Positions 31,043 through 46,264 of a stretch of DNA of 64,000 bases are shown piece after piece. Positions within the stretch are counted from its first letter, which is position 1; every line of letters starts with the position of its first letter. The stretch comes from Anaeromyxobacteraceae bacterium. GTDB taxonomy: Bacteria > Myxococcota > Myxococcia > Myxococcales > Anaeromyxobacteraceae. Made by a program: the position numbers and the translations under genes. Where the stretch lies: contig JASGHJ010000002.1 in the NCBI GenBank assembly GCA_047602405.1, positions 2,208,001 through 2,272,000 on the forward strand, read 5' to 3'. The notes below the pieces were generated by a model. The model made no database searches and had not been told where the DNA came from. It saw nothing but the letters and a program-made list of their open reading frames with translations.

Positions 31043-33342
31043 ATGGCGAGCTTTCCCCAGACCCTCGCGACGACCGGCCGCAACGCCGCGCCGGCCCTCG
31101 TGCTCGCGACGGCGCTCGTCGCGACGGGGCTCTCCTACCTCTCGGCGCGCTCCGTCGCGGACGTCCAGGTGGCGCGGCGGTTCGAGGACATCGGCGAGGG
31201 CGCGACGGGCGCGCTGCGGCAGCGGATGGACGCGTACCTCCTCATGCTCCGGTCGCTCGCCGGGCTCTCGAACGCGCTCGACCGGGCGCCCACCCGCGCC
31301 GAGTTCCGCGCCCAGTACGAGGCCCTCGAAGCGGCCTCGCACTTCCCGGGCATCCAGGGGCTCGGATGGGTGACCTTGCTCTCCCCGGGGAGCTCGAGGC
31401 GCACGAGCGCGCGGTGCGGGCCACCGGGATCCCGGGCTACCGGGTCTGGCCCCCCGGCCCGCGCGCGGTGATGACGAGCATCGTCCACATCGAGCCGCTC
31501 GACTGGCGCAACCAGCGCGCGGTCGGGTTCGACATGTACTCGGAGCCCGTCCGCCGCGAGGCGATGGAGCGCGCCCGGGACACCGGGCAGCCCGCCGCCA
31601 CCGGCCGGGTCGAGCTCGTCCAGGAGGCTGGCGCGACCCGGCAGGCAGGCTTCCTCGTCTACCTGCCCGTCTACCGCGGCGGCGACCCGCCGGAGACCTT
31701 GGAGGAGCGTCGGGCGCGCCTCATCGGGTGGGTCTACGCGCCCTTCCGGGCCGGCGACCTGCTCGCGGGCACCCTCGCCGTCGCCGACATCCCCGGGATG
31801 CGGCTCGACATACACGACGGCCAGGGCGCGGAGCCGGGGACGCTCCTCGCGGCGCTGGGCGAGCCCGAGGCGGCGGAGCCGCCGGTGCGCGTGCGGGTCA
31901 CGCACGTGGAGGTGGGCGGCCGCACGTGGACGCTGCGCCTCTCGGCCGGGCCCGCCTTCGCGCAGCCCGCCGAGCGCCAGCTCCCGCGCATCGTGGCGGC
32001 GATCTCGGCGGCGATCGCCCTCCTCCTCTTCTGGATCTCCTGGCGGGAGGCCCAGGCCCGCGGCCGCGCGGAGCGCACCGCGCTCCGGAACGCCTTCCTC
32101 GCCGACGCGGGGCGGCTGCTCGCCGCGTCCTTCGACTACTTCCGCACGCTCGACGACGTCGTGCGGCTCGCGGCGGGCCAGATCGCCGACGGGGCGATCG
32201 TCCAGCTCGTGGAGCCGGCCGAGCCGCTCTGGCTCGTCGCGCACCGGGACCCCGCGGCCGGCCGGGCCATCGCGTCGGCGCTCCGGGGCTGGCGCCCGCG
32301 CAGCGAGGACGCGGTCGGCCCGCTCGCGGCGCTGCGCACCGGCGCGCCCATCGTGGTGCGCCGGATCGCCTGGGACGCCCCGCCCCTCGCCGGCAAGCCC
32401 GAGCTCGCCGGCGCGCTCCGCGCGGCGGGGGTCCGCGCCGCCCTGGCCGTGCCGCTCGTCGCCCGCGGCGAGCCCCTCGGCGCCGTCGTGCTGCTCTCCT
32501 CGCGCCGCCTGCGGCCCTTCCCGCCGGAGTCGGTCGCGCTCGGCGAGGATCTCGCCCGCCTCGTGGTCGCCGCCGTCGAGAGCGCCCGCCTCTACCGGCG
32601 CGCGCAGGACGCGGTCCGCAGCCGCGACGAGTTCCTCTCCATCGCCTCCCACGAGCTCAAGACCCCCATCACCTCGCTCGCGCTGCAGGCCGACAGCCTC
32701 CGCTCGTCGGCGACGCGCGGGGACACCGACGCCCTCGTGCGCAAGATCGAGGTGGTCCGCCGGAACGTGCGCCGCCTGTCGAACCTCGTCTCCACGATGC
32801 TCGACCTGTCCCGCATCCAGGCCGGCCGCCTCGACCTCGAGCCGGAGCTCGTCGACCTCGGCGAGCTCGCCCGGGAGGTCGTGGTGCGCCACGGGGAGGA
32901 GGCCGAGCGGGCCCACGTGACGCTGCGGCTCGACGCGCCCGAGCCGGTGATCGGCCGGTGGGACCGGCTCCGCCTCGAGCAGGTGGTCACGAACCTCGTC
33001 ACGAACGCCCTCAAGTACGGGCGGGGCCATCCGGTCGACGTGCGGGCGCGCGGCGCCGGGGACCGGGCGGTCCTCGAGGTGCGGGACCGCGGCATCGGCA
33101 TCGCGCTCGACGACCAGCCCCGCATCTTCGAGCGGTTCGAGCGCGCGGTCTCCGACCGGCACTACGGCGGGTTCGGGCTCGGGCTCTGGATCGTCCGCGA
33201 GGTGGTCGGGGCGATGGGCGGCCAGATCCGGCTGCAGAGCGCGCCCGGCGAGGGCTCCACGTTCACGGTCGAGCTCCGGCGCGCGCCGGACGAGGCCTCA
33301 CCCGCACCGGCGCCGTCGCGCGCCGGCCCAGGAGCCGCCTAG
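31043..33342 (+). CDS. CHASE-GAF sensor histidine kinase; -1 frameshift at ~31388
   Basis: FPGIQGLGW / IEPLDWRNQRAVGFDMYSEPVRREAM (CHASE), GAF, ASHELKTP, NLVTNALKY, GFGLGL. Confidence 0.85.
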
Positions 33343-33345
33343 CGC

Positions 33346-34260
33346 ATGACCGGCAACCTCTCCCGCTTCGCCTGGCTCTCCATCGCCGCCGCGATCGTGA
33401 CGATCGCGCTCAAGACCCTGGCCTGGCGGGTCACCGGCTCGGTCGGCCTCCTCTCCGACGCGCTCGAGTCGCTCGTGAACCTCGCCGCGGCGGTGATGAC
33501 CCTCCTCATGCTGGGGCTCGCCTCGCGCCCGGCGGACGAGGCGCACGCCTACGGCTACTCGAAGGCCGAGTACTTCGCGAGCGGCGTCGAGGGCGCGCTG
33601 ATCCTGCTCGCCGCCGCCGGCATCGCCTGGACCGCGGTGCCGCGCCTCCTCGCGCCGCAGCCCGTCGAGCAGGCGGGGCTGGGCCTCGCGATCTCGACCG
33701 GCGCGTCGCTCGTCAACCTCGCGGTGGGCCAGGTGATGCTCCGGGCCGGGCGCCGCCACCGGTCGATCGCGCTCGAGGCGGACGGCCACCACCTCATGAC
33801 CGACGTCTGGACCTCGGCCGGGGTCATCCTCGCCGTCGGCGCCGTCGCGGTGACCGGCTGGGTGCGCCTCGATCCGCTGATCGCGCTCCTCGTGGCCGCG
33901 AACATCGTCTGGACCGGCGTCCGCATCGTCCGGCGCTCCGCGCTCGGGCTGCTCGACCGCGCGCTCGACCCGGAGGAGCTCGTGCGGGTGCACCAGGTGA
34001 TCGAGGGGCACGCCGCCCGCGGGGTGCAGTTCCACGCGCTGCGCACCCGGCAGGCGGGCTCGCGGCGCTTCGTGTCGATGCACGTCCTCGTGCCGGGGGA
34101 CTGGACCGTCACGCGCGGCCACGACCTCGTCGAGGAGATCGAGGCGGAGATCCGCGCGGCGGTGCCGAACGTCAACGTGCTCACGCACCTCGAGCCGGTC
34201 GAGGATCCGGCGTCGTTCGAGGACGTGGAGCTCGACCGCTCCGCCGCGCCGCCCGGCTGA
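33346..34260 (+). CDS. Cation diffusion facilitator (FieF-like) metal transporter
   Basis: [31 protein letters not shown]-terminal HLEP dimerisation domain. Confidence 0.9.
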
Positions 34261-34279
34261 GGCGCCGCCCGGCCGCGGC

Positions 34280-35095
34280 TCACTGCACGAGCTGCTCGTC
34301 GGCGTGCTGCGCCGCCTCGAGCTCGCCCATCCAGGCCCTGAGGCCCTCGAACTCGCGGACGACCCGGCCGTGGGGGAGGGGCTCGGGCCATTCCCCGCGG
34401 CCGCCCACCACGAGCTCGACCCCGCGCTGCCGGCAGGCCTCGCCGACGACGGTCGCCTGCTCGGCGAGCGTCGACCGGTTCGCGACGACGCTCGCGGACA
34501 GCACGACCGCGTCCATGCCGCCCTGCGCGACCATCCGCTGGATCTCCCCGGTCGGCGTGCGCCGGCCCGACCACCGGACGTTCCAGCCGGCCTCCTTCAG
34601 GCAGACCTCCACGAGCCCGAGGCCCAGCATGTGCTCCTCGCCCTCGGCGGTGGCGAGCAGCACGCGGGGCGCGGAGGGGCGCGCCGGCAGCGACTCGGCG
34701 CAGCGGCTCAGGGCGCGCGAGAGGCGCTCGGAGGCGAGGTGCTCCTCCACGATGCCGATCCGGCCGTCCTGCCAGCGGCGGCCCAGCTCCTCGATCTCGG
34801 GCGCGACCCAGATCGCGACGCGCCACCAGGCCCCCAGGCGGGCCCGCTGCTCGAGGAGGGTCGCCTGGATGCCGAGCACGTCCTCGTCGCCGAGCAGGCG
34901 GTCGACGAGGCTCGGGCTGTGGCCCGTGACCCCCTCGCGGCTCCGCCGGAAGCGCTCCACCGCCTCGAGCGTGTAGCGGCGGTGGCGGCCGGCGGTGCGG
35001 ACGCACTCGATCTTGCCGTCGTCCGACCACCGCTTGACGGTGCCCGTGGAGACGCCCAGGAGGGAGGCCACGTCGCTGCTCGTGAGGAGGCGCAT
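34280..35095 (-). CDS. CarH/LitR-like regulator: MerR/excisionase-type HTH plus cobalamin-binding domain
   Basis: HTH VASLLGVSTGTVKRW...RTAGRHRRY; W-x9-EH (WQDGRIGIVEEH); E-x-H-x-x-G (EEHMLG); LSAS and VGGRG. Confidence 0.85.
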   Translation of the reverse strand: MRLLTSSDVASLLGVSTGTVKRWSDDGKIECVRTAGRHRRYTLEAVERFRRSREGVTGHSPSLVDRLLGDEDVLGIQATLLEQRARLGAWWRVAIWVAPEIEELGRRWQDGRIGIVEEHLASERLSRALSRCAESLPARPSAPRVLLATAEGEEHMLGLGLVEVCLKEAGWNVRWSGRRTPTGEIQRMVAQGGMDAVVLSASVVANRSTLAEQATVVGEACRQRGVELVVGGRGEWPEPLPHGRVVREFEGLRAWMGELEAAQHADEQLVQ

Positions 35096-35111
35096 CGAGG
35101 AGACTCCGTGC

Positions 35112-35843
35112 TCAGGCTGCGGTGCGCTCCGGGTCGGCGCTCGACTCCGCGAGGGCCGTGGCGAGGTACCGGTGCAGGTACTGCTTCGCCTTCAGCTCCA
35201 CCTGGCGGACCCGCTCGCGCGAGACGCCCCAGCGCTTGCCGATGTCCTCGAGGGTGGTGGGATCGTCCTGCTGCAGGCGGTTGTGGATGATGTCCCAGCC
35301 GAGCTCGCCGATGCGCTTGCGCACCTTCACGAGCGCAGCGCGGATCTCGTGATCGCCCTCGGCGGAGAGGAAGCGGTCCTCGGGGCCGGGGCCGTCGTCC
35401 TCGAGCCGGTCGAGGTGCGTGACGTCGCCGTCGTCGTCGAAGGTCAGGTCGAGCGAGAGGTCGGACTGCGCCACGGTGCCGCTCTGCGGGCGCACCGAGG
35501 AGCGGACCTCCTTGAGGTACTTCCCGATGTACGCGCGGATCCACCAGACCGCGTAGGTGGAGAAGCGCGTGCCGGCGTGCGGGTCGAACTTCTCGATCGC
35601 GCGCATCAGGCCGACGTTGCCCTCCTGGATCACGTCGTCGAGCCGCACCGATCCGAGCCGCTGGCGGCGGGCGATGGCGACGACGAACGCGAGGTTGTGC
35701 TGCGCGAGCTGCTGCTTCGCGCGCACGTCGCCGCCCCTCGCGCGGACGGCGACCGCGTGCTCCTCGTCGCGCGAGAGCGGCGGGTGCGCGCGGATGGCGC
35801 GGAGGTACGGCGCGAGCTCGTCGGAATCCTTCCTGGTGCGCAT
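35112..35843 (-). CDS. Alternative sigma-70 family RNA polymerase sigma factor (RpoH/RpoS-like)
   Basis: Region 1.2 YLRAI, region 2 DVIQEGNVGLMRAIEKFD..RFSTYAVWWIR, region 4 TLEDIG..GVSRERVRQVE; GAGGA RBS supports the 35843 start. Confidence 0.88.
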   Translation of the reverse strand: MRTRKDSDELAPYLRAIRAHPPLSRDEEHAVAVRARGGDVRAKQQLAQHNLAFVVAIARRQRLGSVRLDDVIQEGNVGLMRAIEKFDPHAGTRFSTYAVWWIRAYIGKYLKEVRSSVRPQSGTVAQSDLSLDLTFDDDGDVTHLDRLEDDGPGPEDRFLSAEGDHEIRAALVKVRKRIGELGWDIIHNRLQQDDPTTLEDIGKRWGVSRERVRQVELKAKQYLHRYLATALAESSADPERTAA

Positions 35844-35889
35844 GAGCATTCCTCGATCTCCCCGTCTGCGTTCGTTCTTGACGGAGGTC

Positions 35890-35929
35890 ATTATGGACGG
35901 AAAAGACGTTTCATTGCAACCGAAACGTC
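35890..35929 (-). promoter_or_regulatory. Sigma70-type promoter (TTGCAA-N18-CATAAT) with an overlapping inverted repeat GACGTTTC-N9-GAAACGTC
   Basis: AT-rich island; -35 at 35914-35919, -10 at 35890-35895; palindrome arms at 35905-35912 and 35922-35929. Confidence 0.55.
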
Positions 35930-36062
35930 CAAATCGGCGCTTCCATGGTCGTTTCGGCCGTCATGCTGCGCCAGATGCGTCCCCCTAAGGGTCGCATCCG
36001 GGCGCCTGGGGCTCGGAGGAGGGCTCGGCGGGAGCTCCGGCCAGGTCGGCCGGGAGGGCGCT

Positions 36063-36539
36063 TCAGGGCTGGCGGGACGCCTGATCCACGGAGAGCGTCA
36101 CCCGCCCCGCGCGCACGCGCACGGTCGCGGCGACGGACAGGCCGCGGACGGCGAGCGGGACGGCGTCGATGGCGAGCGGCGCGGGCGCCGAGTCGTTGCC
36201 GGCGAGGGCGCGCGCGGCGACGACGGCCGCCTCCACCGGACTCGAGGTCACCGCGGGGCGCGGCGGCGGCAGCGCCCCGCCGGCCGTCGGCACCGGGCGA
36301 GGCGCGGCCACGGCAGCGGGCGGCGGCGGGTGCGCCGGCACGGGGGCGGCGCCGGGCGGCGGCGCAGGAGCGGGCGCGGGCTTCGCGGGCGCGGCCTTGC
36401 GCGGCAGGAGCCCGGCCCGCGCGCGCCGCTCGTTCTCCGCGTCGATGCCCGAAGGCTGCTGGGGGCGCGCCAGGGCCGGCGCACCGGCGGAGGCCGCCAC
36501 CGCGAGGGCCACCCCGACGGCGAGTCCGGCGCGCGTCAC
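36063..36539 (-). CDS. Secreted proline-rich hypothetical protein
   Basis: Signal-peptide-like N-terminus; GTG start overlaps the upstream stop (GTGA). Confidence 0.5.
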   Translation of the reverse strand: MTRAGLAVGVALAVAASAGAPALARPQQPSGIDAENERRARAGLLPRKAAPAKPAPAPAPPPGAAPVPAHPPPPAAVAAPRPVPTAGGALPPPRPAVTSSPVEAAVVAARALAGNDSAPAPLAIDAVPLAVRGLSVAATVRVRAGRVTLSVDQASRQP

Positions 36540-43151: not shown

Positions 43152-46100
43152 ATGCACGTCGCCGAGTTCGCCGTCCGCCGCTGGCAGTTCACCCTGGTCG
43201 TCTTCCTCGGGATCGCCCTCCTCGGGGTGTCCTCGCTCCTCTCCATCCCGAAGCAGGAGGACCCGTCGTTCGACTACCCGAACTTCGCGGTCGTCGCCGT
43301 GATGCCCGGCGCCGCGCCCGCGGACGTCGAGCGGCTCGTCGTGCAGCCGGTCGAGACCCGGCTCGCGTCCCTCGAGGACGTGAAGTCGATGAAGACCACC
43401 GCCTCCGACGGCCTCGCGGTCACCCAGCTCGAGTTCACCGCCGGCACCGACCCGGCGAGGAAGCGCGACGACGTCCTGCGCGAGCTCTCCGCGCTCCGCC
43501 CGACGCTCCCGCGAGAGCTCGCCCGGCTCGACGTGAACGAGTTCAACGCGAGCGAGGTCAACATCGTGCAGGTGGCGCTCGCGAGCCCGACCGCGCCGTA
43601 CGGCGAGCTCGACCGCCTGTCCCGCGCGCTCAAGCGGCGCCTCGAGGGCGTGCCCGGCGTCGCGAAGGTCGTCGTCGACGGCCTGCCCCCGCGCGGGGTC
43701 CAGGTGGCGGTCGATCCGGAGCGGCTCGCCGCGATGGCGGTCTCCCCGCTCGAGGTCATCGGCGCGATCGGCGCCGAGGCACAGAGCATCCCCGCCGGCT
43801 CGCTCGACGCCGGGGCCCGGCAGCTCTCGGTGAAGACGAGCGGCGACTTCCGCTCGGTCGAGGAGATCGCCGAGACCGTGGTCCGGAACGCGGGCGGCAG
43901 GACGATCCGGGTCCGCGACGTCGGGACCGTCGCGCTGCGCGACGCGGAGCCGGTGCACCTCGTGCGGGTCGACGGCGTGCGCGCGGTCTCGATCGCCGCG
44001 AACCAGAAGCAGGGCCAGAACATCTTCGACGTCCGCGCCGGGATCGAGAGGGAGCTCCGCGGCTTCGAAGGGGAGCTCCCCGCGGGGGTCTCGCTCGTGG
44101 GCGCGTTCGATCAGGCCGAGAACGTGAAGCACCGCCTGGGCGGGTTCAGCCGCGACTTCGCGATCGCCATCTTCCTCGTGCTCCTCACCCTCCTGCCGCT
44201 CGGCGGCCGGGCCGCGATCGTGGTGATGGTCTCCATCCCGCTCTCGCTCGCGCTCGGCGTCGTGCTCCTCCAGCTCACCGGCTACACCATCAACCAGCTC
44301 TCGATCGTCGGCTTCGTGATCGCCCTCGGGCTCCTCGTCGACGACTCGATCGTCGTGGTCGAGAACGTCACCCGCTGGATCCGCCAGGGCCACGCACCGC
44401 GCGAGGCCGCCGTCCGGGCCACCCGGCAGATCACGCTCTCGGTGCTGGGCTGCACCGCCACGCTCGTCTTCGCCTTCCTGCCGCTGCTCGCGCTGCCGGG
44501 CGCGCCGGGCTCTTCATCCGCAGCATGCCCATCGCGGTGGTCTTCACGATCCTGGCCTCCCTCGTGGTCTCGCTCACGGTCGTGCCGTTCCTGTCGAGCC
44601 TGCTGCTCAGGCCCGAGGCGGAGCACGGCAACGTCTTCCTGCGCGGCCTCACCTGGGCGATCGACCAGAGCTACGGCAAGATCCTCTCCCTCGCGATGGC
44701 GCGGCCGGCCCTGACGATCGGCGGCTCGGCGCTCCTCCTCGCCGGCGCCCTCGCGCTCGTGCCGTCCATCGGCTTCAGCCTCTTCCCGAAGTCCGGCCTC
44801 CCCCAGTTCCGGGTGACCATCGAGGCGCCGGAGGGCGCGAGCCTCGCCGCGACCGACGCCGCCACCCGCTTCGCCGAGGCGGCGCTGCGCCGCCACCCGG
44901 AGGTCGTCCGCACCGTCGCGAACGTCGGCAAGGGCAACCCGCGCGTCTACTACAACGTGGCGCAGAAGAACGAGGTCTCGAGCGCGGGCGAGATCCTCGG
45001 CGTGCTCGACACCCGCGAGGAGGCGAGCATCGAGCGCGTCCTCTCCGCCATCCGGGCCGAGGTGTCCGGCTACCCCGGCGCGGTCATCGAGGTGAAGGAG
45101 TTCGAGCAGGGGCCGCCGGTCGACGCGCCCATCGCGGTGCGGGTCCTGTCCGAGGACCCGGTGAAGCTCGAGGCCGCCGCCCGCGAGGTGGAGGCGGTCA
45201 TGCTCGCGACCGAGGGCACCCGCTACGTGAAGAACCCGAGCCGGGACCGCAAGAGCGACCTCCGCGTCCGGATCGACCGGGACCGGGCGGCGCTCGCCGG
45301 CGTCGCGGTGCCCGACGTGGACCGCGCGGTCCGGCTCGCGGTGGGCGGCATCACCGCCGCGACCTACCGCGACGAGGGCTCCGACGTGGCCTGGGACGTG
45401 CGGGTCACGGCCCCGCGCCTGGACGGCCCCGCGCCGCTCCCGGGCGGCGCCCGGCCCGGCCTCGACGTCCTCGAGCGGCTCTACCTCCCCGCCGCGCGCG
45501 GCGCGGTCCCGCTCGCGCAGGTGGCGGACCTCGTGCTCGAGCCATCGCCGGCGCGCATCGACCACTTCGACCGGGTGCGCTCCACGACGGTCACCGCCTG
45601 GACCCGCGAGGGCTTCAACACCGACCGGCTCACGAAGCAGATCCTCGCGGCGATCGAGGGGAAGCGCTTCCCCGGGGGCGTGACGATCCAGGCGGCCGGC
45701 GAGCTCGAGAGCCGCCAGCAGAGCTTCGGGGGGCTCGGGAGCGCCATCATCGTCGCGATCGCGGGCGTGCTCGCCGTGCTCGTGCTCGAGTTCCGCACCT
45801 TCCGCTCGACGCTCATCGTCGCCTCGGTGATCCCGCTCGGCGTGATCGGCGGGCTCGTGGCGCTCTGGCTGACCGGTTACACCCTCTCCTTCACGGCGGT
45901 GGTCGGGTTCGTCGCGCTCATGGGCATCGAGGTGAAGAACTCGATCCTGCTCGTCGACTTCACGAACCAGCTCCGCCGGGAGGGGCTCGGCCTCGAGGCC
46001 GCCATCCACCGCGCCGGGGAGGCCCGCTTCGTGCCCATCCTGCTGACGACGCTCACCGCGCTCGGCGGGCTCGTGCCGCTCGCCCTGGAGCGCTCGGCGC

Positions 46101-46264
46101 TTTTCTCCCCGCTCGCCGTCGTGATCATCGGCGGGCTCGTCTCGTCCACCCTCCTCGCCCGCGTGGTGACGCCGGTGCTGTACCGGCTCCTGCCGCCGGA
46201 GCTCGAGAATGCACCCGAGCCCGACGCCGCGACGGTGCCGGGCGCGCTCCCCGCTCACCCCTGA
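43152..46264 (+). CDS. RND efflux permease (AcrB/AcrD/AcrF family); -1 frameshift at ~44508
   Basis: IALGLLVDDSIVVVEN, VKNSILLVD, RFVPILLTT; two ORF halves join by one base. Confidence 0.9.

Follow-up and report, generated by a model that had tools for sequence, protein, structure and literature searches.

The window analysed here (the whole stretch of 64,000 nucleotides; positions without a contig label are counted from its first letter) comes from genome G000 of an Anaeromyxobacteraceae bacterium (6.16 Mb, 74% GC, 98% complete), and the nearest named relative is an Anaeromyxobacter MAG whose copy of the regulator discussed below is 94% identical. ORF inspection places two adjacent genes on the minus strand, a short sigma factor gene and, directly behind it, a gene for a regulator with B12-binding domains (Table 1); third-codon-position GC is 0.97 in the sigma and 0.99 in the regulator ORF, and both ORFs are real. 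A previous sequence-only reading had the sigma gene end 16 bp before the regulator, and this is exactly the gap that we find. No terminator-like site was found in the sigma-regulator region, and contig X4 (612 nt, 80 differences, 27 gaps), assembled from an RNA library of a relative, bridges the junction between the two genes, which as a contig is no proof of a single transcript and carries no weight here; 14 RNA runs came up, all with word shares of at most 0.07, and X4 was the one among four aligned. The two genes likely form one operon. Elsewhere in the window, a CHASE-GAF histidine kinase (31043-33342) is split over two frames, while its G010 copy is one ORF of 766 aa, which points to a frameshift or an assembly error, and an AcrB-family transporter (43152-46264) shows up as a pair of ORFs that overlap each other and match profile positions 2-457 and 463-1020, likely another frameshift.

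Table 1. Features of the sigma-regulator locus, in the direction of the two genes
Feature	Position in window	Strand	Basis and remarks
Predicted operator: GCGCCGATT TGGACGTTT, 11-bp spacer with -35 box, AAACGTCTT TTCCGTCCA	35894..35940	-	Matrix and repeat-only model; two head-to-tail 9-bp repeats, two inverted
Predicted sigma-70-type promoter, TTGCAA-18-CATAAT	35890..35919	-	Overlapped by predicted operator; sole match in 33200-36200, against a mean of 0.0 over 50 shuffles
Short sigma-70-family factor, 243-245 aa, regions 1.2/2/4, region 3 mostly missing; duplicate of core copy behind rpoC	35112..35849	-	Start 35843 or 35849; Pfam, alignment, tree, 77% to G000:C2:1624860
Intergenic spacer with GGAG ribosome site	35096..35111	-	16 bp; GGAG 8 nt before regulator ATG
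Probable CtMerR-type cobalamin-binding regulator, 271 aa	34280..35095	-	Profiles, PDB match, AlphaFold/Foldseek
BldC/excisionase-type winged helix, residues 3-53, TVKRW...RTxGxHRR	34937..35089	-	HTH_17 E 1.6e-11; BldC NF033787 49.8 bits; 6AMK/6AMA E 1e-5
Predicted upper (adenosyl) face of B12 pocket: G105xxW108, W108-x9-E118H119	34739..34783	-	Motif match
Rossmann B12-binding domain, residues 144-233: G152xxH155, E153xH155x2G158, G177xxxP181, S200, G231G232	34397..34666	-	Pfam and motifs

The regulator combines HTH_17/MerR, B12-binding_2 and B12-binding domains, all at or above the Pfam cut-offs, the second one barely so (23.5 vs 23). Four signatures, GxxW, EH, GxxH and GxxxP, are named as marks of the light response in adenosylcobalamin (AdoCbl) photoreceptors (PMC11796333), and the regulator has all four (G105/W108, E118/H119, G152/H155, G177/P181). 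They are also maintained in the 36-sequence clade that holds the sigma-paired regulators, with G105, W108, E118, H155, G177 and P181 present in 36 of 36 members and H119 and G152 in 35, in an alignment from which loci with less than 34% identity, fewer than 220 aligned residues, stops or a sequence identical to another row had been dropped. By analogy, W108, E118 and H119 may contact AdoCbl from above and H155 from below. In the classic motif D/ExHx2G-x41-SxT/V-x22-27-GG, E153xH155x2G158 and S200 are exact, position 202 is S rather than T/V and the GG follows after 28 residues. So the motifs listed in the sequence-only reading are all there, W108-x9-E118H119, E153-x-H155-x2-G158, S200 and G231G232 as well as the helix K21RWSDDG in place of the RxWERRY of CarH; in contrast, its suggestion of tetrapyrrole gating found no echo, with nothing pointing to haem or another tetrapyrrole.

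The best sequence match among PDB entries is CtMerR from Chloracidobacterium thermophilum (8JBS, E 3.7e-25), with Thermus thermophilus CarH behind it at E 1e-14, and the VKRWSD helix is common to the regulator and CtMerR; within the clade, K21-R22-W23-x-D25 is kept in 36 of 36 members. The AlphaFold model (pLDDT 95) shows a helix bundle and a Rossmann fold, for which CarH and CtMerR are the top Foldseek matches. In the alignment, E154/R179 falls on the salt bridge of the CarH dimer, albeit with charges swapped relative to the Glu-Arg form described there (PMC9304148), and R179 is kept in just 15 of the 36 clade members. Identity with canonical CarH can be rejected, based on the lack of RxWERRY, a score of 61.2 bits against the NF052513 cut-off of 400 and the lack of an 11-bp operator; nor is the regulator a stand-alone BldC, its score against NF033787 (49.8 bits) lying below the cut-off of 77 and its HTH being fused to a B12 domain. 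CtMerR (8JBS/8JBT), whose B12 domain binds AdoCbl and, under green light, dissociates from a tetramer into monomers, likewise has a KRW-type DNA-binding domain and four of four signatures and, like the regulator with its Q109, is without the light-state His that follows the Trp in CarH; it differs in length (327 vs 271 aa), and the accessible part of its description speaks of 'an alternative DNA-binding site' and gives no operator or target, whereas here an operator and a sigma target can be predicted (PMC11796333). Judged from sequence, the regulator is likely an adenosyl-B12 photoreceptor of the CtMerR type. A paralogue (L035:7721-8977; G000:C2:473048-474276, the latter copy split over three frames) has the same KRW-type helix and, at its C-terminus, a hemerythrin domain; its B12-like domain has lost W and EH (Q...LE in their place), and the protein is possibly an oxygen sensor on the same scaffold.

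The sigma factor shows regions 1.2, 2 and 4 in Pfam searches, with region 3 short by about 40-50 residues, so that the span from region 2.4 to 4.2 amounts to 108 aa, compared with 150 for RpoD and 160-161 for the pair of RpoH-type sigmas in the genome. The box QRKLFF is a mark of RpoH, and it is found in both RpoH-type sigmas of the genome but not in the linked sigma. With region 3 mostly gone and a score of 145.6 bits where the rpoH cut-off is 323, we reject an RpoH identity, and with it the earlier description of the sigma as 'RpoH-like'. Instead, the linked sigma is 77% identical to a core copy (G000:C2:1624860) situated behind rpoC, and regions 2.4 (STYAVWWIRAY) and 4.2 (RWGVSRERVRQVE) are the same or near-identical in both. 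Since these are the promoter-reading regions, the linked and the core copy likely share their target promoters; promoters read by the linked sigma itself were not identified in G000.

Relatives of this short sigma occur, at E <= 1e-40, in 38 of 41 genomes of the order. One of them, 59% identical and located in L158, stands in a row of genes that runs GTP cyclohydrolase - FAD oxidase - sigma - ORF - acyl-CoA ligase - tatA (neighbours named by eye from translations), which is the gene order of MXAN_2955-2960 around MXAN_RS14320 in Myxococcus xanthus, where a 750-bp sigma gene encodes the same domains (PMC9548883) and its mRNA goes up late in development (PMC6791715). That sigma is likewise short, with regions 1.2/2/4, and has no B12 sensor beside it, whereas here an extra copy would stand under a predicted light operator. 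The linked sigma fits the myxobacterial short-sigma type in length (~240-250 aa), in its regions 1.2/2/4 and in its M. xanthus orthologue, which lies at the folE-FAD oxidase-tatA locus. We take MXAN_RS14320 to be the gene with the old tag MXAN_2957, that is SigD, which presumably is a stationary-phase and stress sigma. Thus the linked sigma is a duplicate of a core myxobacterial short sigma, likely of the M. xanthus SigD type. The linked sigmas group together with weak support (bootstrap 65) in a sigma tree that kept a meaningless row, the wrong-strand translation G020_extra, by which supports may be disturbed. Other short-sigma duplicates (L040, L041, L042; ~62% identical, with a WKYLKQ variant of region 2.4) adjoin what by eye appears to be a squalene/hopanoid-type cluster.

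Upstream of the sigma gene, a predicted housekeeping-type promoter is overlapped by an array of 9-bp repeats (Table 1), whose layout is common to relatives of the regulator: two head-to-tail units (~TGGWCGRTT), a spacer of 10-12 bp (in 22 of 28 training sites) with the -35 box, and two inverted units between -35 and -10. This array lies within the region 35880-35960 that the sequence-only reading had put forward for DNA binding. A 50-bp matrix was trained on 47 de-duplicated upstream regions (of 66), all from regulators without a sigma neighbour and with the best 70% used, and its highest-scoring site in all 6.16 Mb of the genome is the sigma promoter, with 29.5 and 25.4 bits on the two strands and 17.6 bits for the next site. 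The same non-sigma matrix scores the four other paired sigma promoters at 24.8-35.8 bits, and the promoter of the core short sigma is absent from its top 40 sites genome-wide. A second model made of four 9-bp units, which ignores the spacer and -35 box and was trained on 28 of 39 non-sigma regions starting from a seed unit read from the first result, also puts the sigma promoter first (31.1 bits vs 22.9 for the next separate site); the site in metagenome locus L046 fits it less well (22.0 bits, 7-bp spacer). In a pattern search, the sigma promoter was the only match in G005, G010 and G014 and there were zero matches in G004 and G019, a result that is not independent, the pattern having been composed after those sites and missing known weaker ones. 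A wide regulon of the regulator in G000 was considered and rejected, for the full and half sites that score next best, C2:3619729, C1:1714413, C1:1117891, C1:526159 and C2:2354007, precede unrelated genes or misfit the 2+2 layout. This leaves the sigma promoter as the one place in G000 with a strong full operator, weaker sites being possible.

Given that the site is conserved among non-sigma relatives and recurs over the sigma promoter, the operator seems to have accompanied the regulator and now stands ahead of the sigma gene, with binding itself being what we infer. The make-up of the repeats is that of Streptomyces BldC sites (6AMK/6AMA), to which BldC is reported to bind head-to-tail on 9-bp repeats with an AT tract and CG; the winged helices are related, but BldC is a lone DNA-binding domain with direct repeats and no sensor, while the regulator has its B12 domain fused and an inverted 2+2 array (PMC5859096). 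CarH of T. thermophilus, Bacillus megaterium and Myxococcus (5C8D-F) shares the fold, Wx9EH, ExHx2G and an operator over a housekeeping promoter, yet differs in its RxWERRY helix and in tandem 11-bp nAnnTnnACAn repeats instead of the 9-bp 2+2 array (PMC9304148, PMC8156234). A search of G000 with an 11-bp doublet pattern of the CarH type gave six matches genome-wide, none of them at the sigma promoter. Together, the KRW helix with a 9-bp array as against the CarH helix with 11-bp repeats suggests that the changed helix goes with a changed operator, and the claim of the earlier reading, a B12-photoreceptor-type regulator with a DNA specificity unlike that of CarH and tied to a sigma gene, thereby holds as a prediction from signatures and operator. 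The DNA site of a CtMerR-type regulator is, to this extent, newly predicted. Where no sigma is present, the end of the operator is in many cases ~20 nt from the regulator start (L074, L080 and L138 are examples), a distance that suggests leaderless mRNAs there.

The regulator family comprises 305 proteins at E <= 1e-20. Among 92 family genomes, 39 carry the regulator type, at 62 places in all; when the best 8 candidates per genome were scored, it was matched in 36 of 91 family genomes vs 1 of 209 other genomes of the order. The pairing with a sigma is rare but not unique to this genome, a case that the sequence-only reading had named as a refutation: a sigma lies directly ahead of the regulator in few soil bacteria of the Anaeromyxobacter type, G000, G005, G010 and G014, that is 4 of the 62 regulator places and 4 of the 92 family genomes, as well as in one of 80 metagenome loci (L046), many of which are short; among the genomes searched, no pairing was found outside the genus. 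Regulator P0009 and sigma P0174 may make up a further pair, as the longest contig has a length of 30951 for both. All paired regulators fall into the 36-sequence clade (support 0.84), which contains no unpaired locus, its other 31 members being proteins without DNA context. At L046 (5261-6790) a trehalose-6-phosphate synthase gene follows 96 bp past the pair on the same strand, which as a single case fits a stress output. One may ask whether the sigma copy is a working activator of the core regulon at all, or rather a passenger caught between an autoregulated promoter and its repressor, a sigma with targets of its own or a competitor of the core sigma. Short sigmas are indeed often duplicated in the family, with up to 5 copies per genome in unrelated settings, and the operator precedes the regulator in most relatives and so is explained without a sigma. 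But in five of five paired loci the sigma has an unbroken reading frame and keeps every region that contacts polymerase or DNA, and the pair is kept at regulator identities as low as 60-64% despite flanking genes that vary between species, so to our minds a passenger or otherwise diverted sigma is quite improbable.

Outside the clade, relatives adjoin cfa/DUF1365/amine oxidase operons, UvdE, lipocalin, fasciclin and photolyase genes. Among KRW-type metagenome loci of at least 3 kb, 23 of 51 have photolyase, cfa/DUF1365, lipocalin, DUF1295 or similar genes nearby (photolyase in 6 of 51) vs 1.1% of random windows of G000 with the same light-linked markers, a comparison that is partly circular as the marker list was taken from those same neighbourhoods. 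The remaining 28 of the 51 larger loci lack any such marker, and many close relatives adjoin PAP2/MFS or methyltransferase/glutaredoxin genes. As for the window, the previous statement that it is free of crt and photolyase genes stands, with zero matches to carotenoid or photolyase families among 40 other proteins scanned. Genome-wide, phytoene synthase (PF00494) has no match in G000, and a photolyase-like gene far outside the window (C2:588473, 25.2 bits) stays below the cut-off of 26.6.

G000 also has a canonical CarH (C1:1937764-1938663, L004) with RAWERRY and W-H-x8-EH, in a genome without crt genes. Three tandem 11-bp repeats of the TnnACA type were seen at C1:1813545 and C2:2177505, before an amine oxidase-DUF1365-cfa operon and in a cfa/DUF1295 divergent promoter, and the pattern for the 11-bp repeat search was written from these cfa sites; the 9-bp array is not found at either promoter in G000. 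Canonical CarH therefore likely controls membrane-lipid cfa/DUF1365 genes via 11-bp repeats. Searches of G005 (94% complete) and G014 (74%) for CarH, DUF1365 and the photolyase FAD domain gave no match. The CarH-type repeats at the cfa genes and these absences imply that the sigma is probably not there for the cfa/DUF1365 or photolyase genes, which in turn favours a broader stress output. In G010, a second B12 regulator of the 9-bp type (L031:7078-9201) lies directly before the amine oxidase-DUF1365-cfa operon, a place where G000 has none, and this suggests operator swapping between two B12-sensor types at the cfa operon.

With operator and repression unchanged, the natural signal might also be cobalamin supply or a redox or ligand state rather than light, with the sigma on when AdoCbl is scarce. 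CarH-type repressors require AdoCbl to bind DNA (PMC8156234), so a B12 shortage would open the operator too; G000 lacks a match for a BtuR/CobA-type adenosyltransferase, and the absence of CarH, DUF1365 and the photolyase FAD domain from G005 and G014 may be read in the same direction. G000 does have a gene for a PduO-type adenosyltransferase and two for methylmalonyl-CoA mutase, so AdoCbl is likely available in the cell. Against the supply reading, every photoreceptor signature is kept, relatives adjoin photolyase and UV-endonuclease genes, and inspection of the four genome loci revealed zero B12 uptake or synthesis genes beside the pair. On balance, control by B12 supply or redox state seems unlikely to us, though less so than a passenger sigma.

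Instead, with a family-conserved repeat lying over its predicted promoter, the sigma is likely turned on by light, and we consider it rather probable that the regulator represses its own operon in the dark and that light releases the sigma. First, as signatures and the precedents of CtMerR and CarH suggest, the regulator would bind AdoCbl between H155 and W108/E118/H119 and oligomerise in the dark. Second, its BldC-like domains would line up head-to-tail on the 9-bp repeats, two on each side of the -35 box at the conserved site, and block the housekeeping polymerase. Third, light would split the Co-C bond and dissolve the oligomer, upon which sigma and fresh apo-repressor would be made and the switch be reset. 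In the fourth and weakest step, the extra sigma may fire core short-sigma promoters, as the helices with which it reads promoters are like those of the core copy, and light would thus be added as an input to that regulon.

In such a scheme the closest functional parallel is LitR-LitS of Streptomyces, where in the dark an AdoB12 sensor likewise holds down both its own gene and that of a sigma, and the sigma relays the light signal (PMC11519972). LitS, however, is an ECF sigma that drives crt genes, and its own gene is transcribed from a bidirectional promoter region that it shares with litR (PMC11519972), whereas the sigma here has region 1.2, derives from a core-sigma duplicate, stands in tandem ahead of its sensor and belongs to a genome without phytoene synthase; the shared trait, a site of the B12 sensor on the promoter of the adjacent sigma gene, is present here by prediction only. 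The pair works like LitR-LitS but is no member of that system, as sensor subtype, operator, sigma class and output differ. Light-state LitR has been described as an activator of the litS promoter (PMC11519972), and the order of a sigma followed by its partner is generally typical of anti-sigma pairs, so the regulator could in principle also or mainly act on the sigma protein or switch on the promoter in the light. Yet two of the repeats sit between -35 and -10, a blocking position, and relatives without any sigma neighbour have the same protein architecture, which makes an anti-sigma or activator role highly improbable compared with dark repression.

Both a B12 sensor gating a sigma gene and a CtMerR-type regulator are already known (PMC11519972, PMC11796333), and to speak of an 'undescribed system', as the earlier reading did, is therefore too strong. 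A literature search, with most subscription journals outside its scope, found no published account of the sigma-regulator pair or of a CtMerR-type operator. What appears to be new is a predicted operator and, by the same kind of evidence, a light-gated duplicate of a core sigma. The model species of the Anaeromyxobacteraceae has been reported to be without CarH and carotenoid genes (PMC9304148), while the regulator type in 39 of 92 genomes suggests light sensing in the family. A wider scenario may be envisaged, which we put forward tentatively as a fair way short of probable, in which B12 photoreceptors of a separate class, reading a DNA code of their own (BldC-style 9-bp repeats, 2+2 about the -35 box) and orthogonal to CarH within one cell, captured a core stress-sigma duplicate in one lineage, so that in a carotenoid-free facultative anaerobe light would fire the whole stationary-phase regulon pre-emptively; light would then warn the cell that it is exposed at a surface and not serve to induce pigment. 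Our data provide CtMerR-type B12 photoreceptors with a testable operator, and their changed recognition helix with an explanation by predicted BldC-like binding. If the two sensors of G000 ignore each other's operators, they would make an orthogonal pair of green-light switches and, if true, the light-gated short-sigma duplicate would be a handle for mapping the regulon of that sigma.
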